A stretch of 64,000 nucleotides of DNA from Candidatus Heimdallarchaeum aukensis. GTDB lineage: Archaea > Asgardarchaeota > Heimdallarchaeia > Heimdallarchaeales > Heimdallarchaeaceae. The translations under genes were made by a program, and so were the position numbers. Within the stretch, counting starts at the first letter, position 1; every line of letters begins with the position of its first letter. Below the pieces are notes generated by a model. It was given only the letters and a program-made list of their open reading frames with translations, did no database searches and was not told the origin of the DNA. Positions 47,534 to 63,888 of the stretch are shown piece by piece. The stretch is taken from positions 2,432,001-2,496,000 of the forward strand of contig CP084166.1 in assembly GCA_021513695.1 (NCBI GenBank), given 5' to 3'.

Positions 47534-48289
47534 AAAAAAAAATTCTTAACTATTTTAAAGTTTCGAGACGAAAATCAAGGTCTGTTCATTCAGTAACATA
47601 AATCAGACTTTGTGTAATAGAAAAATGTGAGAGTGCTTCATAAATTTTCTCCAAGATGAAGAAGTAACGGGTTGATGAAAGCAGTTAAAATTATAGTAAG
47701 AATGGCAGAATGAGAGATCAAAGCTGTATCATCTTAGACCAAATCTTCTCATTTCTCTAATAAAAAAGTATCATCTTAAAAAATGTTTTTTGTTGAAATA
47801 ATTAAGTAACAGAGCCCAAACTTCTCTGTTTTTAAAAAAAAGAAAAAAGTTATTTTATCTTTCTTCTTAGTCTACTTCGGGTAATTGATAATAGTCCAAT
47901 AAGTGTTAAGGCACCCATGAAATACTTTTTTACGTAAAAAGCTAAATTTTTAGTTTGTGGAGTTATTAGACCAATAACAACCAGAAACACATTTGCATTA
48001 ATAAAGAATACACGATATTGGGGAGTGTCACAACTTTTCTGCTGTCTTTATATATTCAATTCTCATTTATCTAGTGTCTTGATCTATATGCTTAAAGACG
48101 TAAGTTTCATTCCTACGACACCCGGTCTTCCATGTGGGAGTGATGAGTGCCCGGGCTCAGGAGATGAACCCCTTAGAGAACTCACTTAAGACTGTGTCTT
48201 TCATGTTCTCTTAACCCAGTCCTCACAACTTTCGCTATGTTTGTTGACTGGTTGGGTAGAGTCCTGAAGAAATTAAGTAAAATTTCAAC

Positions 48290-49141
48290 TCATGAGAAGA
48301 AACCTGTAAAGTCTCCCATTGAGATCTCAACTTCTTTTTCGTTAGAAGAATGTCCTCTTTCTTCGTCTTCTGTTTCTTCATCTATCTCTTTTTCTCCTTC
48401 CGATTCTATCTTAACTTTCATAGCTAAAGCAGAATTGGGTTCTATGTATGGGAATTTGTGTATTCCTATATCTATCTTTAATTCTACAGGAGTGATAAGA
48501 GAATCATTTACTATTGCAAATTCGCCACTAGCGTAAATCCTGCTGGTGAAAACTCCGTCTGATGTTTCAATATTAAGTATATGGACTAAATTTCCTGAAA
48601 TGTTATCAGTGGTATATTCTATAGGTAGGAAATTGTCGAAAAGATATGTTTGGACAAGCTGATCTACTGATTCATTGTACATTCCGTCAGCGTCTGTATC
48701 GATATATTCAACAATATTAGAGATTTTGACCTTAAATTCTAATTCTATTTCTTGAGTGCTAGTGTCTGAAGAAAATTCTAGTTTGAACTCTATGTCATTA
48801 CCATCAGAGTTACTAGGAACTTCAAGTTCTATTTTAAATTCGTTTTCTGTATCTCCAAATTCTCTTCTAGATTTAATCTCAGCACTATGTGTAGAAACCT
48901 CTATCTCTACTTCTCGCTCGTTAATCTTTTCTTCTTCATCGTCTATACCGTCGTCATCTTCATCGTGATCCTCTTCTGTTTCTATTTCAGTTTCTTCTTC
49001 ATCTTCAGGGGGATCAGTTTCATCTTCATCGTCATCTTCATTGGCAATTACAGGTACAACTATTAGAAAACTAGTTACCATTAAGAATATAATTACGCCA
49101 CTTACAAGAATTCGTTTCTGAATTTTTTGACTGATTTTCAT
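48290..49141 (-). CDS. secreted or membrane-anchored highly acidic protein (N-terminal signal anchor followed by a D/E-rich low-complexity segment)
   Basis: KRILVSGVIIFLMVTSFLIVVPVIA is followed by NEDDDEDETDPPEDEEETEIETEEDHDEDDDGIDDEEE. The antisense ORF 48237..48536 is judged to be a shadow. Confidence 0.45.
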   Translation of the reverse strand: MKISQKIQKRILVSGVIIFLMVTSFLIVVPVIANEDDDEDETDPPEDEEETEIETEEDHDEDDDGIDDEEEKINEREVEIEVSTHSAEIKSRREFGDTENEFKIELEVPSNSDGNDIEFKLEFSSDTSTQEIELEFKVKISNIVEYIDTDADGMYNESVDQLVQTYLFDNFLPIEYTTDNISGNLVHILNIETSDGVFTSRIYASGEFAIVNDSLITPVELKIDIGIHKFPYIEPNSALAMKVKIESEGEKEIDEETEDEERGHSSNEKEVEISMGDFTGFFS

Positions 49142-51112: not shown

Positions 51113-51676
51113 TTGTTGATAGTTTTGTCTGCTTTTACAGCACGACAAGTTTTTTCATCTACTGATGAAAATGAAACAGATGTTCAAGAATATTTCTTTG
51201 ATTTAACCTTAATTTTTGTTGAAGATACTACTTTTGAGGATTATGCTCCATATATACAAAAATATCTCAAAGAGATAGGTATTAATGTATCAATTCTTCC
51301 TCAGAATTATTGGGATTTTTATTTTTCTGTTGTTTATGATCGCGATTTTGAGATTGCTTTAGCTGGTTATTCTAACTCTCCTGATGCATATCTCGATGAT
51401 TTGTTAATTGAAGATTCTAACAGTAACTATTGTTCATTTAATAGTTCAATTCCTTATTATAATGAAACAAATGATTATATTGAAAAAATTAAGACTACAG
51501 TCGATCCTGATACTAAGCTAACTTATTATTACAAATTACAAGAATTAGTAATGGACAAGGTTTTACCAGTTATTCCTCTCTTTACTTCAAATGAGTATAC
51601 TATTGCTTGGTCAAACTTGAAAGGTTACGATATGTCTTGGGGATTAGTAAACAGTTTACATTACATGGTTTTGTAA
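51113..51676 (+). CDS. short ABC-transporter family-5 solute-binding-protein-like ORF: signal peptide fused directly to the C-terminal lobe. The N-terminus is probably disrupted by a frameshift in an 8-T homopolymer (ATG at 51087).
   Basis: IGINVS...RDFEIALAGYSNSPDAYLDDLL...YNETNDYIEKIKTT.DPDTKLTYYYKLQELVMDKVLPVIPLF matches the SBP_bac_5 C-terminal third. The ATG at 51087 followed by T8 at 51102-51109 would give MKKIQFFFVLLIVLSAF... if one T were added. Confidence 0.45.
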   Translation: MLIVLSAFTARQVFSSTDENETDVQEYFFDLTLIFVEDTTFEDYAPYIQKYLKEIGINVSILPQNYWDFYFSVVYDRDFEIALAGYSNSPDAYLDDLLIEDSNSNYCSFNSSIPYYNETNDYIEKIKTTVDPDTKLTYYYKLQELVMDKVLPVIPLFTSNEYTIAWSNLKGYDMSWGLVNSLHYMVL

Positions 51677-51697
51677 AGTCAAAACTTAAAATTTTTA

Positions 51698-52723
51698 TTT
51701 TATATAAAGCATGTCCAAAAATTAATTTTTATTAATGTGGGGGTTTATGTCGGAATTATGAGTTTCTTTCAGATCATAGACCCCCACAAACTAAGAGAAT
51801 TCATAATTATGAATGAACCTTTCCTTAAGAAATTGGTGGATGAGAAAACGAGAGAAAGCAAGAAAGGAAGAAAAAAATAGCAGAAAGATGGGTAATATTA
51901 GCAATAACAATCATTGCAAGAATAGAAGGGATAGCCTGGAGGAAGTTAGAAGAAAAGTTGCCTCTATGCGATTTTTTGATAGAAGAGGGGTGGATGAGGA
52001 AGATTCCTTCTAAATCTACTTTTCATGCAGTGTGGGAAGCAACAGAAATTAAAATTTTAGAGCAGTGGATAATAGATTTAGGGGGAGAAATAGTGAGAAA
52101 AAAAGGGTTGAAAGCTATGGCAGTGGACAGTTCAGGGTTTAAAATTCGTTAAGCTTCTGTTTGGCGTTTTCTCAAGTGGTCAAGAGGGACACTAAAGAAA
52201 TCCTCCCAACTAAACTTTTCTGGAAGATACACCTTATAGTTGGTTTACCCTCCAGAGCTGTAGTCTCTCTAGCTCATTCAGCTAGTAACACTCACGATAG
52301 TAAAGTCTTCGGTTTACTATGGCAGAAACTTCCTTCTGCACTCTTAAGACCGTTCTTGAGATTCTATGATGACTGCGCCTACTGGACAGAAAATATCGTC
52401 GGTCTTCTTAGCCAACATTCTTTTTTCCCTGTTATTCCCCCAAAAAGTAATGCTCGTTATCCCTCTCCTCCTCCCCTCGGACCAATAGTTCAAGCTCATC
52501 GTCTCTACCCTGGTCTCTATCGTCGTAATCATCACCCCGAGTATCGTAGTAGTATTGAACATGTCTTTGGTCTTCTCAAACTCTCTCTTCCGCCCATCCT
52601 TGATCGTTTACCCTCTACTATTCTTTCTACGCTTTACAGTTCTCTTCTCTGTTACAACTACCTTTTACTCCTTCGGACCGTTTAGTAGGTGAAAAAGAAT
52701 TTTTGGACATGCTTTATATAAAA
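51698..52723. mobile_element. insertion sequence, IS4/IS5 superfamily (IS5-like), 1026 bp, with perfect 26-bp terminal inverted repeats; the transposase is degraded
   Basis: The left end 51698-51723 is ttttatataaagcatgtccaaaaatt. The right end 52698-52723 is its exact reverse complement. The interior is markedly GC-richer than the flanks, and it carries the transposase C-terminal motif YRSSIEHVFGLLK (IS5 Y-R-IE-F-LK). Confidence 0.75.
51813..52685 (+). pseudogene. IS5-family DDE transposase split over three ORFs in frames 0/+1/0 (51813-52013, 51958-52152, 52161-52685)
   Basis: ORF2 has the DDE D1 region MAVDSSGFKI. ORF3 has the C-terminal YRSSIEHVFGLLK. Two opposite frame shifts argue for decay rather than programmed frameshifting. 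Confidence 0.65.
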
Positions 52724-52783
52724 CGAAATTATCGACACTTTTGTATGCAATATTTTATAATTTGTTATTTTTTGTTTTAGTTA

Positions 52784-54421
52784 ATGAGTGAAAAAGTAAC
52801 AAAAAAGAAATTACGTGAATTAACACTTTGGGGAAAGGAAGAACCTGAAAAGCTTAGTGAAGGATTAGTAAAAGAGCTTAGTTTACTTATTCCTTCTTGG
52901 AAAATTAAGGAATTAAAAGAAGAAGAATTAGAACAAGAAGTGAGTATACCTCCTAACAGTTTGTCAGAAAAACAAATAGCAGAGTTAAAAGAAATTGTAG
53001 GAGAGAATAATCTAAATTTGGATGCTATTACTAGAATCATGTATTCTCATGGAGGAGCAGGAGAAGATTTAATTAGAGTTAGAACAGCTAATTTTTCTTT
53101 GTTAACTGAAGCAGTTGTTCATCCAGAAACAGAAGAACAAATTATCGCTGTGATGAAATTCTGTGAAAAAAACAATCTTTCTCTGATAGTAGTGGGAGGA
53201 AGAACAGGAGTTACACGGGCTACAAATCTATCAAAAAAAGGAATAACAATAGATTTACGTCCACATTTTACAAAAATAATTCACTTTGATAAAGAACAGT
53301 TATTAGTTAGAGTTCAAACAGGAATCTTGGGGCCAGAGTTGGAGGATTATTTACAGAGAAGAGGATGTACTCTAGGTCATTTTCCCCAATCTTTTGAACA
53401 ATCTTCTGTTGGAGGATGGATCGCTTCAAGAAGTGCAGGACAAAATTCTTCTTTAGTAGGAAAAATAGAAGATATGGTTATTAGCCTTCGAGTTTGCACT
53501 CCTCAGGGTATAGTAGAATCACACCTTTCTCCTGCTAGAGCTACTGGTCCCCAGTGGTTCAGATATTTTATTGGCAGTGAAGGAACATTAGGAATTATTA
53601 CTGAAGCTGTGCTTAAAATCAGGACCGATGAAACAAGAAACAGAAAATTTGCTAGTTTTATGTTTCCTTCTTTTCAAGATGGAATAAACGCAATGAGAGA
53701 AATATATCAAGGAGAATTTATTCCAGCTATCGGTAGACTTTCATGTGGAAATGAAACACAAGCCTATTTGCTCTTAAATAGGGAAGGAAAGGTGAGATTA
53801 AAAGATAAACTAATAGAATTTATATTGAAAACCCTCAAATTTTACCCAATGCGACGAGCAGTATTTCTTACTGTCTTTGAAGGAAGTAAAGAATATGTAA
53901 AAAAAGCCAAAAAGAGAGTAAAAAAGATAGCTTTAAGACATAAAGGATTGCCTGCTGGAGGGAGTTATTCTAAAAAATGGTTTGAAGATCGATTTGAACA
54001 TCCACATTTAAGAGACAGCTTGCTAGATAAAGGACTTATAGTAGATACTCTTGAGACAGCTAGTACTTGGGATAATGTTCCTATATTAGAGAAAAAAGTG
54101 AAAGAAGCAGTAAAAGATATTTGCCCACTAACTATTGCTCATCTTTCTCATAGTTATCCATCTGGTTCAGCAATATACTTTACTTTCTTCATACCTTTAC
54201 AGAAAAACAAAGGATTAGAACAAATTAGAGAGTTGCAGAAGAGAGTAATTACTACTTTTCAAAAAAATGGAGGAGTAGTTTCTCACCACCATGGTATAGG
54301 TAAAGCATTCAAAGAGTGGGGAAAGAAAGAGTGGGGAGAAACAGCTTTAAAAATGGCTGAAGGAGTAAAAAAAGAACTAGATCCTGATAATATTCTTAAT
54401 CCTGATAATTTTCCTTTTTAA
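52784..54421 (+). CDS. FAD-linked oxidase (FAD_binding_4 + FAD-oxidase_C), GlcD/D-lactate dehydrogenase / alkyl-DHAP-synthase-like, with ~105-aa N-terminal extension
   Basis: It has the FAD-binding PCMH domain VVHPETEEQIIAVMKFCEKNNLSLIVVGGRTGV...GITIDL and the C-terminal motif VSHHHGIGK, which is typical of this family. Confidence 0.7.
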   Translation: MSEKVTKKKLRELTLWGKEEPEKLSEGLVKELSLLIPSWKIKELKEEELEQEVSIPPNSLSEKQIAELKEIVGENNLNLDAITRIMYSHGGAGEDLIRVRTANFSLLTEAVVHPETEEQIIAVMKFCEKNNLSLIVVGGRTGVTRATNLSKKGITIDLRPHFTKIIHFDKEQLLVRVQTGILGPELEDYLQRRGCTLGHFPQSFEQSSVGGWIASRSAGQNSSLVGKIEDMVISLRVCTPQGIVESHLSPARATGPQWFRYFIGSEGTLGIITEAVLKIRTDETRNRKFASFMFPSFQDGINAMREIYQGEFIPAIGRLSCGNETQAYLLLNREGKVRLKDKLIEFILKTLKFYPMRRAVFLTVFEGSKEYVKKAKKRVKKIALRHKGLPAGGSYSKKWFEDRFEHPHLRDSLLDKGLIVDTLETASTWDNVPILEKKVKEAVKDICPLTIAHLSHSYPSGSAIYFTFFIPLQKNKGLEQIRELQKRVITTFQKNGGVVSHHHGIGKAFKEWGKKEWGETALKMAEGVKKELDPDNILNPDNFPF

Positions 54422-56355: not shown

Positions 56356-56901
56356 TTGATGAAAAAAGCAGTATATTTAACTAAGTTTGTATTTATAGTT
56401 TTAATTCTATCTTATTCAGCAATAATCACCTTTTCAGAAAATACAAATGAAAATGATTATTTCTTTTCTATAAACTTACTATCTCCTAATCCTTCTTGCT
56501 GTCCTAATGAATATGCCTACCAAATGGAAGAAGAATTACCAAAAATTGGTATTAATATTAGTCACCATGAATCAACCGGTTGGGGTAATATTATGCCCAG
56601 AACATGGGGTTATCCCGTTGGTGAAGAAGGTAAGTTTGATTATATACCCACCTATGAAGAAGGAGGATACGATATCCTCTTTGTAGGTTGGTGTTGGAAA
56701 CTAGATTGGGATCCAACAGGACTGTTTGATTCACCAAGTATAGTGCCGAACGGAGATAATGTATACCAATATAACAATCCTGAATTTGATACAAAGCTTG
56801 TTGAGTATACGACTGAACTAAATGATGAAGAACGTATTGAAAAAGCAAAAGAATTACAAGCTATTATTTATGAAGACCTGCCAGCTATAACCATGACTTA
56901 A
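56356..56901 (+). CDS. short SBP family-5-like ORF (signal peptide + C-terminal lobe), paralog of 51113..51676, truncated right after the conserved EDLPAI region
   Basis: The signal peptide MMKKAVYLTKFVFIVLILSYSAIITFS is followed by IGINIS...YDILFVGW..DWDPTGLFDS...NVYQYNNPEFDTKLVEYTTELNDEERIEKAKELQAIIYEDLPAI. Confidence 0.45.
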   Translation: MMKKAVYLTKFVFIVLILSYSAIITFSENTNENDYFFSINLLSPNPSCCPNEYAYQMEEELPKIGINISHHESTGWGNIMPRTWGYPVGEEGKFDYIPTYEEGGYDILFVGWCWKLDWDPTGLFDSPSIVPNGDNVYQYNNPEFDTKLVEYTTELNDEERIEKAKELQAIIYEDLPAITMT

Positions 56902-57417
56902 TGCACTTAAGGCGAAGCCATAAGGTTTTTTGAATTTAAATTCTACTGTATCATTATCTATCGCCTTAATTGAATCGTTATTTTCGAACAAGCTTGTTAG
57001 TTCTTTGTAAAATGGTGTGTTTAGCGCTTTTGTCATAAACAGTTCATACGTATAATCTACATCATAAGCTGTTACTTTATCCCCATTAGAGAAATAGGCG
57101 TTGGGATTAATATCTACTCTAATTACTTTCTTATCTTCGCTAATGGTGTAATTTTTAGCTATAACTGGTTCCATCAGATGAGTTTCCTGAGAACGTTCAA
57201 AAAGTCCATAATAGACACAATTCATCCATAGTTTATCATAATATGATTCTTGTATAAAAATGCTGTATTCTGTTAACTCTGCGGGGATAGTCCAACTAAT
57301 ATTATCTCCACCTATTTTTTCCCAATTTTCTGAACGATGAGCACTGTTAATTAATAAAGTAGGATCAATACCTTTGACACTCTTATTGCACAGATAAATT
57401 TCTTCGAAGTAAAGCAT
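56854..57417 (-). pseudogene. N-terminal lobe fragment of an ABC family-5 solute-binding protein, encoded on the opposite strand and lacking a signal peptide
   Basis: GLFERSQETHLMEPVIAKNYTISEDKKVIRVDINPNAYFSNGDKVTAYDVDYTYE and SIKAIDNDTVEFKFKKPYGFALSALS align with the DppA/OppA N-terminal domain. Confidence 0.55.
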
Positions 57418-57420
57418 GGT

Positions 57421-58128
57421 ATAATAAACAAAAAACTAGTAAGTCAATATATAGAAGAAAATGGATACAAACTTACAGTCCTAGATCAAGCTCTGGTAAC
57501 AAGCACAGGACCATACATGCTAAATGTTTCTGAGTTTAATACAAGTAAAAGTATAGTAACACTCAGACCAAATCCATATTGGTCTATTACAGAAAAAAAA
57601 CCAGTAAACAAACTAATATTCCAGTACATAAGTGGTAAAGATACAGCAATTAGTGCTTTAGCAAATGGTACAATAGATATAGTTGATTCAAGTTATTGCA
57701 CAAAAGAAACAGATTTTGAAAATGTAGAAGTGAATATCCTAATAGCTAAAAGTATGAATACAGAAGAAATGGCTATAAATATGAAACACCCAATAATAGG
57801 AACAGGAGAACTTACACCTCTAGGAACGGCAGAAGCAGCAAAAAAAATACGCCAAGCGATAAGTCATGCAGTACCAAGAGAAACACTAGTAGAAAAAATA
57901 TTTTATGGAACAGCTATCCCAGGAGTGACTCCAATGCCAGAAGGATGTATAGGTTTTGATTCGTCATTAGAACCCTTTACTTATGACATATATCTAGCTA
58001 TTCAACTAATTGAGGAAGCAGGATTTACAAGAAATATTACAACAGACACAACAGGAAATGCTACATTAATAGTAGTAACATTGATTTCTATTTGTTATGC
58101 TGTAATCTTAAAAAGGAAAAAGAAATAA
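57421..58128 (+). pseudogene. middle-domain fragment of an ABC family-5 solute-binding protein ending in a C-terminal TM anchor; no in-frame start before 57517
   Basis: The open frame from about 57358 reads ...KKLVSQYIEENGYKLTVLDQALVTSTGPYMLNVSEFNTSKSIVTLRPNPYW...IRQAISHAVPRETLVEKIFYGTAIPG...PFTYDIYLAIQLIEEAGFT. It ends ATLIVVTLISICYAVILKRKKK. Confidence 0.5.
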
Positions 58129-59462: not shown

Positions 59463-60110
59463 TTAATTTGCAATTGTAAAGTATTTAGCAGCGAATCTGC
59501 CTGCATTTGTTAATTTAATAATATTATTTCTTCCTTCTTTTTTATTTTCAATGAGATTCTCTTTTTCAAGTTTATTTATATAATAACTTACAAGTTGAGG
59601 TCTTATATTCAGAACATCACTGATCTCTGAATTAGCTGAACAAATTTTTCCTCCTCTTTCAAGTATGAGTGTAAGTATTTTTTTGGCATTATCTTTTATG
59701 TCATCTAATTGGACTTTTGGAATGGGAAGCTTAATTATTCTATCACTTAATGGATCATTATTTTTTGGTTCTTTAATATAATAAATCTCTGAACCAGAAA
59801 AAAATCCTGCTATTACACCAGCTGATGACATGATTTTTGTACCTCCTGTAATGTTTATGTGGATTCTATTACCAATGTTCTTCTTGATAATACTAAGAAT
59901 TTTAACTACAACATCTTCTAAATCAAATTTATCAACTTCAACTAATGTACAATTAATAAATAGTTTTTCAGTTAGTGCTCTAATTGAATTAGCCTCTGTT
60001 TTTGATCCTTCATTGTAAAGAAGAAATATATCATCAATTTGATATGCATTTATTCCTTCAATTATTGGTTTTGGTGTCAATCCAACTGTCATAATATGTA
60101 CATTTCGCAT
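59463..60110 (-). CDS. Csa3-like CARF-domain + winged-HTH transcriptional regulator
   Basis: It has an N-terminal Rossmann-like CARF core (MTVGLTPKPII...IFLLYNEGS...RIHINITGGTKIMSSAGVIAG) and a C-terminal wHTH (ISDVLNIRPQLVSYYINKLEKENLIENKKEGRNNIIKLTNAG). It is divergent from the viperin gene. Confidence 0.55.
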   Translation of the reverse strand: MRNVHIMTVGLTPKPIIEGINAYQIDDIFLLYNEGSKTEANSIRALTEKLFINCTLVEVDKFDLEDVVVKILSIIKKNIGNRIHINITGGTKIMSSAGVIAGFFSGSEIYYIKEPKNNDPLSDRIIKLPIPKVQLDDIKDNAKKILTLILERGGKICSANSEISDVLNIRPQLVSYYINKLEKENLIENKKEGRNNIIKLTNAGRFAAKYFTIAN

Positions 60111-60216: not shown

Positions 60217-61095
60217 ATGAATTCCGGATTAATCGATAGGGAAACAATAAGAATGCAATCTCGTAAGTTAGTAAGTGTTAACTGGCATCTGTGGCCAAGA
60301 TGCATGAATAATTGTTCTTTTTGTTTTGGAAGATTTAATGAGATTAAAACGACCTTAAATAGAGAAAATGCGCTAAGAATTTTAAGAATCCTAGTAGATA
60401 GTGGAACTGAAAAAATTTCTTTTACAGGAGGAGAACCATTATTATGCCCTCATTTGGGAGAGTTGATAAAAGAAAGTCATAATTTAGGCTTAACAACAAT
60501 GTTGATAACAAGTGGTACAATTCTAAATACAAAATTTATTGAAGAACATCATAGGTATTTAGATTGGATCGCCTTGAGTGTTGATAGTTCAAATGAGCAT
60601 ATCCAAAAACAATTAGGAAGAGGAAACGGAAATCATGTTCACAAGATTAAAAAATTATCAAAAGATATACATTCCTATAATATCAATTTAAAAATTAATA
60701 CAGTAGTAACAAAACTTAACTGGAATGAGGACATGACTGAATTTATAGAAGAAATTGCCCCTGTTAGATGGAAAGTTTTTCAAGTCCTAAAGATTGTGGG
60801 ACAAAATGATGGTACAATAGATCAGTTGCTTATTTCTGAAGAAGAATTCAATGTTTTCGTTAAAACCCACAATCATCTGAAACCAGTAGTAGAATCTAAT
60901 AAAGATATGAAAGGCTCTTATATAATGTTAGATGCATTAGGTAGATTCTTTCAAAATTCTAATGGTTACTTACAATATAGTCAATCTATATTGGAAATTG
61001 ATCCAATAAAGGCTATTATACAGGTGGGTTGGGATTATAACAAATTTATAAAAAGAGGTGGATTATACAATTGGAATATAAAAGGGGGAGGTTAA
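60217..61095 (+). CDS. prokaryotic viperin (pVip; radical SAM ddh-nucleotide synthase homolog of RSAD2)
   Basis: It has VNWHLWPRCMNNCSFCFG (CxxxCxxC), KISFTGGEPLL, LDWIALSVDSSNE...GRGNGNHV, INLKINTVVTKLNWNEDMTEFIEEIAPVRWKVFQVL, DMKGSYIMLDALGRFF and KRGGLYNWN. This is a near motif-for-motif match to eukaryotic viperin. Confidence 0.85.
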   Translation: MNSGLIDRETIRMQSRKLVSVNWHLWPRCMNNCSFCFGRFNEIKTTLNRENALRILRILVDSGTEKISFTGGEPLLCPHLGELIKESHNLGLTTMLITSGTILNTKFIEEHHRYLDWIALSVDSSNEHIQKQLGRGNGNHVHKIKKLSKDIHSYNINLKINTVVTKLNWNEDMTEFIEEIAPVRWKVFQVLKIVGQNDGTIDQLLISEEEFNVFVKTHNHLKPVVESNKDMKGSYIMLDALGRFFQNSNGYLQYSQSILEIDPIKAIIQVGWDYNKFIKRGGLYNWNIKGGG

Positions 61096-61101
61096 ATATC
61101 T

Positions 61102-63888
61102 ATGTCAGTTCTTTATTATGAAAACCTGGAGGAAAAATTACCCGAAAAAGTAGTAGAATCAATTATGTGGTCTACTTTGCACGGTATTAAACCTTATTTA
61201 GAGTTTATTGATAGAATTGTCCGTTCTGCTATTGAAGAAAGAATTAGTATAGAAATAGAAAAGTATGATATAACTGAATTAATTTTAGAAGAGACAGAAA
61301 TTAACAAAAATATAGATAAAATTAATGAAGAAGTTATTGCGGATTATAAAGTATTACTGAAAGAAAAGAGATTAAGTAGGCAATTAAGAAAAGTTATTAA
61401 ATTAGTTGAAAAAGGTGTTGGTGTCTTATATCGCTTTGTTGAACCAAATAATGATATGGAATTGGAAAATTATGACCTAATCAAAGAACGTTTTTTGGAT
61501 GCTGATAAAGTTTTTCCACACAGAAAACTTGAATATCAGCATACTATTCGTGTTTTAGATACTTATCCTCCTCTTGATTTACTTGTGTTAAAAAAGAAGG
61601 ATATTAAAAAAAGCAAGCAGAAAATGAGAATATACCAAAGAGCAAATCTTTATCAGTATGGTGTAATAAAAGAATCGCTGGAACAACTATTAAACAGACC
61701 TTTAAAGCACAATAGAAATTTAATAAGATTATTTGAAAATGTCAAACATGTCCGTTTTGGTGATGTAATTCCTCACAAAATAAAAGAAGATGAGTGGTTA
61801 TTTCTTACGGATAAAAATCGTGTAGGAAGCCAAGATCAAAGAAAATTTGTTCAAATTGCCTTGGGGACGCCTGATCTGGCAATATTAGAAGGGCCTCCAG
61901 GTTCAGGAAAAACTACAACTATTTGTGAATTAATTTATCAAGGATTAAGACGTGGTTTAAAAATTCTATTGGTTGCATCAACTCATGTGGCTGTAGATAA
62001 TGTTTTAGAAAAATTAATGGATGAAAATTCTCCTATCTATGATGAAATAAAAAAAGTAGTCTTACCTGTTCGAATTGGAAAAACAGATAGAATATCTGAT
62101 CTAGCTACCATGTATCAAGTAGACACCTACTGGGAATCTGAAAAGGAGAAATTAAAAGATAAATTGCGTAAATTAAAAAATAAAACAGAATCTCAAAAAA
62201 TGCTGTTAGATCTATTAGATGATAAGGAAAAAGGCACATCTGATTATATGAAAAGAGTTTTCATAAAAGCTGCTAATTTAGTATGTGGAACAACAATAGG
62301 TATTCTTCGACATCCTGAAATAGAAAAAAGAAAAAAAGATAGAAAAATTACATCTACGAAACCTTATGACCTTCTTATTTTAGATGAAGCTAGTAAAACA
62401 ACCTTTCAAGAGTTTATTGTACCTGCTTTGTTAGCTAAGAAATATATTATAGTTGGGGATATTAGACAATTACCTCCTTATGTTGATGAGGATGGTATAA
62501 TTAGTAATATCCCCTCGATAACAGATTTAGAAAGCAAATTTGCTACATTGATTCATAATCTTAAAGAAGCTCAGAAGCGCAATTTATTCCCTGTTAAATG
62601 TATATTACAAATAAGTAATGACCTAAAAGATAATGATTTAGAAATAATTGAAAAGTTTACGATTAATAATGTACCATTTTATTATCTAAAAAAAGAGAAG
62701 AAAGTAGACTTATACAAACTTATGGGTTCCTCTTTGTTAATAGGAACGAAAGAAAATTTACAAAAACAAGAATCTCTGTTACCTTTAGGAATAAATTGTG
62801 TGTGCGAAGGAAACTCCTCTGCATTAGTTCCATTAAATGAATCTAAGACATTTGTAGATTTTACAATTTGGAAGAGAAAACATAATGCGATTTCATCTTT
62901 GAGGCAACCAATAAACTTACGATTTTACAATGATGAATCTTTAACTGAAGCAATAGGCTGGCGCTTAATAAGGGATTTTGAATTAAGATATGTTGATAAT
63001 GATAGATATTGGAAACAAATAGAAACATTTATCCCAGAGTACTGGGATGAAAAAAGAAAGAGAGATTTTATTAACAGACTATTTCAAATAAAGAGGTTAG
63101 CTTTTCCATCGATAATTGAATTATTGCAAAAAGGTTTCCAAAGAAGCAAAAAACAAAAAGAATTAGATATCGGTTTGATTATAACTGATGGATTACCTAA
63201 AAAAATATTACAAGAACGCCATGTTATATTAAAATATCAACAAAGGATGCATCCTGAGATATCTGCATTTCCTAGAAACAATTTTTATAATAATGAAGCA
63301 CTCCGTGATCTGCCTGAAATTGAGAAAAACAGAGTTTTTGAATATCCAAATTATAAAAATAGAACAATCTGGGTAGATGTTCGGTTAAACAAAGAAGAAC
63401 AAAAAGAAATGAAAAAAAATATGAATAGAAATAAAAAAGAGGCTAAAGTAATTATTGATGAGCTAAAAGATTTACTTGATTGGATGTCTAAAAATAGGAA
63501 ACGTGATGGAAAACCATGGATTATAGCTATTCTTCCGTTTTATAAAGGTCAAGAAAAACTAATTAGAAAAAAACTTCAATCTTATTTTAAAAGTAAACGA
63601 GTAAGAACATTTTATTGTATAGAAAAAAATGCAATAGTTGAGCTTTGTGCTGTTGATAGGTTCCAAGGGCATGAAGCTGATATTATTTTTCTATCTTTTG
63701 TAAGGAATCGTAGCACTGGTATTGGTTTTTTGGATACTCCAAATAGACTTAATGTTGCGCTAACAAGAGCTAAATATCAGTTGGTGATAGTAGGAGACAA
63801 ACAATACTTCGAAAAATTTCAAAAGAGATCAGAAATCTTGCAAAAACTTGCAGAAGAAACACCTCTAAAAGCAAAGTATAGGATCTGA
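61102..63888 (+). CDS. Upf1/MOV10-like superfamily-1 helicase (AAA_11/AAA_12, COG1112-type) with ~260-aa uncharacterised N-terminal domain
   Basis: It has Walker A GPPGSGKTTT, motif II ILDEASK, motif III IIVGDIRQLPP, motif IV-like QRMHPEISAFPRNNFY, motif V VDRFQGHEADIIFLSFVRN and motif VI LNVALTRAKYQLVIVGD. A strong SD (GGGGGAGGT) lies within the viperin stop region 6 nt upstream. Confidence 0.8.
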   Translation: MSVLYYENLEEKLPEKVVESIMWSTLHGIKPYLEFIDRIVRSAIEERISIEIEKYDITELILEETEINKNIDKINEEVIADYKVLLKEKRLSRQLRKVIKLVEKGVGVLYRFVEPNNDMELENYDLIKERFLDADKVFPHRKLEYQHTIRVLDTYPPLDLLVLKKKDIKKSKQKMRIYQRANLYQYGVIKESLEQLLNRPLKHNRNLIRLFENVKHVRFGDVIPHKIKEDEWLFLTDKNRVGSQDQRKFVQIALGTPDLAILEGPPGSGKTTTICELIYQGLRRGLKILLVASTHVAVDNVLEKLMDENSPIYDEIKKVVLPVRIGKTDRISDLATMYQVDTYWESEKEKLKDKLRKLKNKTESQKMLLDLLDDKEKGTSDYMKRVFIKAANLVCGTTIGILRHPEIEKRKKDRKITSTKPYDLLILDEASKTTFQEFIVPALLAKKYIIVGDIRQLPPYVDEDGIISNIPSITDLESKFATLIHNLKEAQKRNLFPVKCILQISNDLKDNDLEIIEKFTINNVPFYYLKKEKKVDLYKLMGSSLLIGTKENLQKQESLLPLGINCVCEGNSSALVPLNESKTFVDFTIWKRKHNAISSLRQPINLRFYNDESLTEAIGWRLIRDFELRYVDNDRYWKQIETFIPEYWDEKRKRDFINRLFQIKRLAFPSIIELLQKGFQRSKKQKELDIGLIITDGLPKKILQERHVILKYQQRMHPEISAFPRNNFYNNEALRDLPEIEKNRVFEYPNYKNRTIWVDVRLNKEEQKEMKKNMNRNKKEAKVIIDELKDLLDWMSKNRKRDGKPWIIAILPFYKGQEKLIRKKLQSYFKSKRVRTFYCIEKNAIVELCAVDRFQGHEADIIFLSFVRNRSTGIGFLDTPNRLNVALTRAKYQLVIVGDKQYFEKFQKRSEILQKLAEETPLKAKYRI

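Follow-up and report, generated by a model that had tools for sequence, protein, structure and literature searches.

A decayed insertion sequence of Heimdallarchaeum and the hairpin that encloses its transposase start codon

What is a segment of about one kilobase, richer in guanine and cytosine (GC) than its surroundings, closed off by a long perfect inverted repeat and filled with pieces of a transposase, and can it still move? The question is raised by a locus in a 64,000-nucleotide stretch of the Candidatus Heimdallarchaeum aukensis genome (contig CP084166.1, positions 2,432,001 to 2,496,000; hereafter the window, with all positions counted from its first letter). A first-pass annotation made from the letters of the window had described the segment as an insertion sequence (IS) of the IS4/IS5 type whose transposase has decayed and whose leader contains a hairpin. 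This core reading is upheld. With a probability of roughly 85%, the feature is a dead full-length copy (51707-52714) of a ~1-kb IS endemic to Heimdallarchaeum, in which a hairpin around the start codon probably limits the translation of the transposase.

The exact 26-nucleotide (nt) string TTTTATATAAAGCATGTCCAAAAATT occurs twice in the window, at 51698-51723 on the forward strand and at 52698-52723 on the reverse strand, with zero chance matches expected from 100 shuffles. The pair had been taken as 26-bp terminal inverted repeats bracketing 1026 bp. The exact pair is indeed present, but the true repeat is shorter. Boundaries and target duplications were derived from 30 copies in Candidatus Heimdallarchaeum endolithica PR6 together with the window copy. 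Aligning these 30 copies from different loci limits the similarity to AAGCATGTCCAAAAATT ... AATTTTTGGACATGCTT, and the element proper is thus 1008 bp long with 17-bp terminal inverted repeats. The 26 nt of the apparent repeat consist of 17 element bases, six bases of target duplication (TATATA) and three T/A flank bases. TATATA is its own reverse complement and therefore reads as an extension of the terminal repeat, which accounts for the seemingly perfect 26-bp structure. The flanking TTT and AAA bases agree with the symmetric T-rich/A-rich target preference of the element. Contrary to the earlier statement that no clear target-site duplication could be assigned, TATATA lies flush to both ends once the boundaries are fixed (Table 1). 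The intact duplication argues that the window copy has not recombined with another copy since its insertion. The left tip GGACATGCTT is retained even in relatives at 40-60% protein identity. Searches of the window by terminal repeat (up to three mismatches), blastn and tblastn found no further copies or solo ends.

Target duplications are 88% A+T and follow a preference for a T-rich flank, TAnAnA and an A-rich flank. The modal length is 6 bp (14 copies), followed by 8 bp (five copies) and by 5, 7 or 9 bp (six copies together), with six copies showing none. The length distribution among the PR6 loci L003-L032 is bimodal, and the 8-bp duplications (L004, L006, L007, L013 and L028) are not explicable as 6-bp duplications lengthened by chance. 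Subgroups of the IS5 family produce target duplications of 4 bp (IS5), 2-4 bp (IS427), 3 bp (IS1031), 2-3 bp (ISL2), 8 bp (ISH1) and 9 bp (IS903). The modal 6 bp fits none of these, whereas the 8-bp minority would fit ISH1.

The interior encodes a recognizable transposase. The hallmarks AVDSSGF and YRSSIEHVFGLLK named by the first-pass annotation are both found in the window copy, along with YDDCAYW. The conceptual protein matches the Pfam profile DDE_Tnp_1 at 36.5 bits, above the cut-off of 23, so that the proposed check of the interior against this profile gave a match; the 174-aa C-terminal open reading frame (ORF) alone reaches 28.0 bits. D124, D204 and R262-x3-E266-x6-K273 do not vary among eight aligned proteins whose identities are 41-73%. 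All of these residues are present in the window copy, with the catalytic codons at 52126-52128 (D), 52371-52373 (D) and 52557-52559 (E). Among the NCBIfam models, NF033579 (transpos_IS5_2) fits best, over model positions 26-286 of 289. The window copy scores 59.9 bits with this model and four intact relatives score 69.7-79.1 bits, against a cut-off of 140. The models IS5_3, IS5_4, IS1182 and IS4_1 score below NF033579. The closest named element found, among annotated plasmid records, is ISAae1 of Aquifex (26.8% identity, E = 2e-5). The element resembles the IS5 family in its length of ~1 kb, a single transposase ORF, short terminal inverted repeats, a target duplication, a DDE triad with R-x3-E-x6-K and a DDE_Tnp_1 (PF01609) match above the gathering score. 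It differs in scoring at about half the curated cut-off, in ends that begin with AAGC and in belonging to a small clade. Only 135 of 1.84 billion cluster representatives match at E <= 1e-3 and 15 at E <= 1e-30, many of them fragments. Judged from these matches, the element appears to belong to a small and divergent clade affiliated with IS5, which to date is represented only in Heimdallarchaeaceae and sediment metagenomes.

Close relatives are numerous in the PR6 genome. At 92% identity, the conceptual protein matches P0001, an intact transposase of 307 aa in PR6 (CP084167.1) and the head of a cluster of 70 protein sequences at 90% identity. When species-representative genomes were scanned, 31 loci were retrieved, every one of them in PR6. 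Only the element itself matches between these loci and the window (88-94% identity), while the flanks do not. In PR6, 22 copies are exactly 1004 bp long, carry the 307-aa ORF and are mutually 96-100% identical, and nine copies are degenerate at 1007-1025 bp. The search for the same terminal repeat elsewhere, as suggested earlier, thus succeeded, since at least 30 other copies are delimited by it, and 22 of those encode an intact transposase of 307 aa. The H. aukensis genome likewise encodes an intact 307-aa transposase of the family (P0165). A terminal-repeat scan of metagenomes recovered a sister subfamily at ~74% DNA identity with the same ends, and DNA was also obtained for relatives at 40-60% protein identity. 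Overall, the subfamilies share ~70-90% DNA identity and common ends. A metagenome contig (L051:640-1028) is 94.6% identical to window positions 47915-48302 and has an IS end ~600 bp away. No IS occupies the equivalent position of the window, so a related population carries an insertion polymorphism. An independent short-read assembly of the same organism contains a contig (Logan SRR15988954_5786, locus L001) that starts at 52686, 29 nt inside the right end, in agreement with repeat-induced breaks at a multi-copy IS. Wu et al. (2022, PMC8813620) reported 11 transposase or integrase families from the two Ca. Heimdallarchaeum genomes, of which seven are multiplied, with as many as 27 copies in a genome. 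The element is very likely one of the families counted there. The same genomes are concerned, with at least 31 loci in PR6 and a protein cluster of 70 found here. The published survey gives no element-level anatomy, whereas ends, target duplication, subfamilies, lesions and hairpin are established here.

The composition of the element stands out from its surroundings, at 39.6% GC compared with 31.1% for the whole window. Between the 26-nt repeats GC content rises from ~30% to 36-47%, with 200-nt windows reaching 47%. The excess noted by the first-pass annotation is therefore real, but the foreign origin drawn from it does not follow, as the family resides in Heimdallarchaeaceae and has diversified there. 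The 39.6-41.9% GC of the element, compared with 31% in both host genomes, could raise the suspicion that it arrived recently by horizontal transfer from a donor richer in GC, yet this seems improbable. The close relatives are all from genomes of Heimdallarchaeaceae or from sediment metagenomes, where the family has split into the subfamilies described above with the same ends. The few cluster representatives at E <= 1e-30 (15 of 1.84 billion) reveal no GC-rich donor lineage, and the ORFs of the measured relatives at 40-46% protein identity (L084, L085, L087 and L088) are 32-44% GC. Old copies have slightly lower GC (37.9-40.7%) than young ones (40.8-41.9%), as decay toward the 31% of the host would produce.

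The hairpin in the 5' leader is real. The arms of the predicted 14-bp stem are present as first described, with 13 Watson-Crick pairs and one G.U pair. The RNA fold of the region (-26.8 kcal/mol, z = -4.64) is the dominant predicted structure, and none of 200 shuffles folded as well. In the window copy, the loop contains ATG 51758 and the left arm an in-frame GTG (51737). All lineages pair the 5' leader with the codons for (I/L)-(D/N)-P-(H/Y), residues 6-10, over a stem of 7-14 bp, and the start codon always lies inside the hairpin. Mostly this is an ATG in the loop, replaced by a GTG in the loop in L085 and by a GTG in the left arm in L084. Across five diverged lineages the arms differ yet stay complementary. 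They read TGTGGGGGTTTATG / CATAGACCCCCACA in the window, GTGGGGATTTA / TAAATCCCCAC in L089, GTGAGGGT / ACCCTCAC in L084, TGAGGGTC / GACCCTCA in L087, ATGAGGG / CCCTCAT in L085 and AAGGATTAAT / ATTAATCCTT in L088. In L024 and L073, one G-C pair has become A-U through a synonymous His codon.

Covariation was scored on a MAFFT alignment of 21 sequences, in which L088 is two columns out of register and so counts against the structure. In the outer helix of 14 pairs, 86.7% of cells are paired and six of the 14 pairs have changed on both sides. For the whole structure (21 pairs, outer and inner helix), 83.9% of cells pair, compared with 34-54% after a shift of the partners by 1-3 columns, and none of 500 shuffles reached the observed covariation score. 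A further test fixed the right arm at the Pro codon and shuffled the sequence upstream; for each lineage, between 0 and 185 of 5000 such shuffles gave a stem as long as the observed one. Between subfamilies, conservation along the element is highest in its first 100 nt (0.80-0.86 identity). An Rfam search of 51500-52900 returned only two chance-level matches far below gathering scores. Because the pairing is kept with compensatory changes in relatives down to 40% protein identity, the comparative evidence indicates that the hairpin is functional. A four-codon upstream ORF (ATG TCG GAA TTA TGA, 51747-51761) is preceded by GGGGGT, and its stop overlaps the transposase ATG as ATGA. This arrangement is shared by PR6 copies and the sister subfamily and is absent from L089.

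The complementarity might instead be due to chance or mark a palindromic protein-binding site in DNA, such as a subterminal site for the transposase or a repressor. The hairpin lies 29 nt from the element end, where transposases often bind, and a DNA inverted repeat co-evolving with a dimeric protein would also produce paired changes. We consider this quite unlikely, given that the arms are almost wholly different across lineages while complementarity is kept (AAGGATTAAT compared with TGTGGGGGTTTATG). G.U pairs are tolerated (U-G occurs eight times at pair 13/47), which is consistent in RNA and would be a mismatch in DNA. Furthermore, the structure always encloses the start codon and has no equivalent repeat at the right end.

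As an RNA structure, the hairpin most likely occludes transposase translation. The terminal repeat and the left arm are separated by a TATA-like stretch, TTTTTATTAA. It precedes ATG 51758 by ~27 nt, the usual distance from an archaeal TATA box to the start. With the left arm placed between this box and the start codon, the native transcript would probably start inside the loop. The element's own mRNA would then be near-leaderless, lack the left arm and be translatable. A transcript that reads in from a gene upstream would include both arms, and its folding would bury the start codon. In the window, a possible source of read-in is the co-oriented fragment of a solute-binding-protein (SBP) gene, with its stop codon at 51674-51676. 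The outcome would be the classical protection against impinging transcription. Such 'protection from impinging transcription' is said to have been described for IS10 and IS50 by Mahillon and Chandler in 1998. In IS200, a left-end stem-loop was shown experimentally to sequester the ribosome-binding site of tnpA (PMC4513863). Like IS200, IS10 and IS50, the element surrounds the translation start of its transposase with an inverted repeat located just within the left end, and a candidate promoter lies beside or between the arms. Unlike the bacterial leader hairpins, it resides in an archaeal host in which translation may be leaderless, no Shine-Dalgarno sequence is evident at a usable distance, the right arm lies within the coding sequence (codons 6-10) and the regulatory role is predicted.

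Several points weigh against the overall interpretation. The family was placed by profile, and the NCBIfam IS5 models reach 60-79 bits against cut-offs of 110-140, which makes the IS5 affiliation a provisional one. The right arm is also under coding constraint (D/N-P-H), so the protein explains part of its conservation. The position of the promoter is inferred, as is the contrast drawn between native transcripts and read-through, and a TATA-like string is weak evidence in an A/T-rich genome. Some gene calls place the beginning of the ORF at GTG 51737, which is in frame and lies within the left arm. If this were the real start, the native mRNA would contain both arms, and the hairpin would act as a constitutive brake, as in IS200, rather than as a discriminator between transcripts.

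Whatever the hairpin does in intact relatives, the window copy is unable to make transposase. The first-pass annotation had spread the gene over frames 0, +1 and 0 and considered it probably inactive. The reading frame is indeed broken, though tblastn places the segments in three different frames (residues 1-40 in frame 2, 29-152 in frame 1 and 150-282 in frame 3), and the inactivity is explained by three lesions (Table 1). The first is a 1-nt deletion, which shifts the frame and is followed by TAG at 51879-51881. The second is a nonsense codon, and the third is a 5-nt insertion of the tandem-duplication type whose frameshift ends at TAG 52237-52239. Together, the duplication, deletion and nonsense codon leave the transposase not producible. 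The window copy would be movable only if an intact transposase acted in trans, and such mobilization is possible because its ends have stayed perfect.

Sequencing or assembly errors in a repeated element could mimic such lesions, leaving the real copy intact. The 1-nt deletion does sit in a homopolymer, where errors are typical, the element is multi-copy, and the independent short-read assembly is broken inside the right end (at 52686). Errors nevertheless are a very unlikely explanation. The 5-nt insertion is seen again in independently assembled copies, including the other genome, JGI metagenomes and a second H. aukensis gene. The window copy is also 88-94% identical to all others along its full length, as expected of an old and diverged copy and not of a mis-polished young one. 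Programmed -1 frameshifting is known from IS1, IS3 and some elements of the IS5 group (IS427/IS1031). That such ribosomal frameshifting, or transcriptional slippage, yields a full transposase and keeps the window copy functional is barely credible: the first frame change does require a -1 shift and occurs on A AAA AAA followed by TAG (51871-51881), a textbook slippery heptamer where a slip would restore ...GRKK-IAERW..., but a single ORF of 307-317 aa, with no overlapping ORFs and no A-run at this site, is encoded by the 22 intact copies of PR6 and also by relatives at 40-60% protein identity, the in-frame TAA at 52150 is not bypassable by frameshifting, the stretch from the 5-nt insertion to the TAG at 52237 lacks an X XXY YYZ slippery site, and each carrier of the insertion has further, differing lesions.

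Table 1. Coordinates of the insertion sequence copy and its parts (window positions; a dot marks features without strand).
Feature	Position	Strand	Remarks
Left target-site duplication, TATATA	51701-51706	.	Identical bases flush to both ends once boundaries are fixed
Left terminal inverted repeat, AAGCATGTCCAAAAATT, 17 bp	51707-51723	+	Similarity between loci begins exactly here
A/T-rich TATA-box-like stretch, TTTTTATTAA	51725-51734	+	Candidate archaeal promoter, as read from the sequence
Leader hairpin	51736-51788	+	Arms 51736-51749 and 51775-51788; 25-nt loop with ATG 51758; right arm encodes I-D-P-H-K
Transposase pseudogene (DDE_Tnp_1)	51758-52685	+	Read over three frames; profile, motif and protein comparison; stop TAG 52683-52685
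Lesion 1, run of seven A from a 1-nt deletion	51872-51878	+	Relatives read AAAAAGAA or AAAGAGAA; private to the window copy
Lesion 2, in-frame TAA nonsense codon	52150-52152	+	CAA or CAG (Gln) in all relatives; private to the window copy
Lesion 3, 5-nt insertion CCCAA before CTAAAC	52205-52209	+	Tandem-duplication-type frameshift; alignments
Right terminal inverted repeat	52698-52714	-	AATTTTTGGACATGCTT on the + strand
Right target-site duplication, TATATA	52715-52720	.	

The 5-nt insertion recurs well beyond the window. It is carried by all nine degenerate PR6 copies, the metagenome loci L073 and L074, the JGI protein P0015 and the H. aukensis protein P0167. P0167 is 95% identical over 152 residues to the intact H. 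aukensis protein, compared with 84% for the window copy, which places the same frameshift in a much younger copy. The inserted unit occurs as CTAAA-CTAAA, CCCAA-CCCAA or CCCAA-CTAAA, and the single-unit alleles are CTAAA, CCAAA and CCCAA. In a rough neighbor-joining tree the carriers do not form one clade. A single origin of the insertion is unsupported on these grounds, together with the existence of both the CTAAA-CTAAA and the CCCAA-CCCAA forms. Recurrent duplication at a hotspot, recombination among copies or the spread of frameshifted copies mobilized in trans could possibly explain the scattered distribution. Other insertions of 4-8 nt resembling tandem duplications are found in overlapping subsets of old copies, near reference positions 720, 771, 812 and 860. 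Old-copy insertions at fixed sites (CTAAA/CCCAA, TGTTATT, ACCAA, TCTA and GTTTA) are shared in a reticulate fashion among PR6 loci L024 and L026-L032, L073, L074 and the window copy (52205-52209). A mutational hotspot, reversible slippage or recombination among copies are possible causes of these small insertions. A bolder proposal combines both peculiarities of the family. The hairpin would serve as a riboregulator that lets the near-leaderless native transcript be translated and silences read-through, while the 5-nt site (52205-52209) would be an ON/OFF switch revertible by slippage, throttling the supply of transposase. We regard this combined proposal as doubtful. All carriers of the insertion have additional lesions, which identifies them as relics rather than poised switches.

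The two halves of the transposase gene also differ in composition. From the N- to the C-terminal half, the third-codon purine fraction falls from 0.67 to 0.25 in a PR6 copy (L003:2501-3421) and from 0.70 to 0.19 in L089 (97-1047). The GC skew in the window moves from +0.5 (51800-52100) to -0.45 (52400-52600). Among the relatives at 40-46% protein identity, L084, L085 and L088 remain at ~0.5 in both halves and L087 shows a weak shift from 0.58 to 0.41. The lack of a switch in L084, L085 and L088 indicates that it is not an effect of amino-acid composition. Long-range RNA pairing between the 5' and 3' halves was rejected as a cause, as the fold of the whole ORF in an intact copy does not improve on shuffles made within each half (z = -0.9). 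A sliding profile of the identity between subfamilies reveals no added conservation in the 3' half of the kind an overlapping gene or RNA would leave, and the only antisense ORF is 72-82 aa long. An antisense transcript over the 3' half might be a cause of the switch.

The window copy was inserted into TATATA in the spacer between the SBP gene fragment and the gene for a FAD oxidase (52784-54418), whose product is identical to UJG40380.1 of Ca. H. aukensis. The first-pass annotation had rightly located the element between a truncated SBP gene and a FAD-oxidase/G3P-dehydrogenase operon. The element did not cause the truncation, since it lies 24 nt past the stop codon of the fragment and its target duplication is intact. 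Parts 291-358, 3-92 and 124-287 of the SBP_bac_5 profile match 51113-51673 (+), 56857-57417 (-) and 57517-58125 (+), respectively. The three fragments look like one SBP gene scrambled around the FAD-oxidase/G3P-dehydrogenase block. The IS is probably not responsible for the scrambling either, given the intact target duplication and the position 3' of the first fragment's stop. The two SBP-like ORFs of 187 aa (51113-51676 and 56854-57417) were also considered as inverted duplicates or a composite structure around the operon, and rejected because their sequences are unrelated. Further downstream, a Csa3/CARF-domain regulator-like gene (59463-60110, -), a radical-SAM gene (60217-61095, +) and a gene for a 928-aa AAA_11/AAA_12 (Upf1-like) helicase (61102-63888, +) follow one another, with Pfam labels taken from the annotation of the Logan contig. 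This cluster may be a defense or signaling island.

Taken by itself, the element is ordinary and adds one more dead insertion sequence, which leaves the interpretation of the neighboring genes unaffected. Its wider interest lies only in the covarying start-codon hairpin and the recurrent 5-nt frameshift. The comparison with its relatives provides the first element-level anatomy of one multiplied transposase family of the two closed Heimdallarchaeum genomes, including the ends, the target duplication and preference, and the young and old subfamilies. Such anatomy aids annotation and helps to account for assembly breaks in Heimdallarchaeum genomes. The rules of translation initiation are poorly known in Asgard archaea, and the covarying hairpin around the start codon offers a clean and testable case of transposase regulation in cis in a member of this group.

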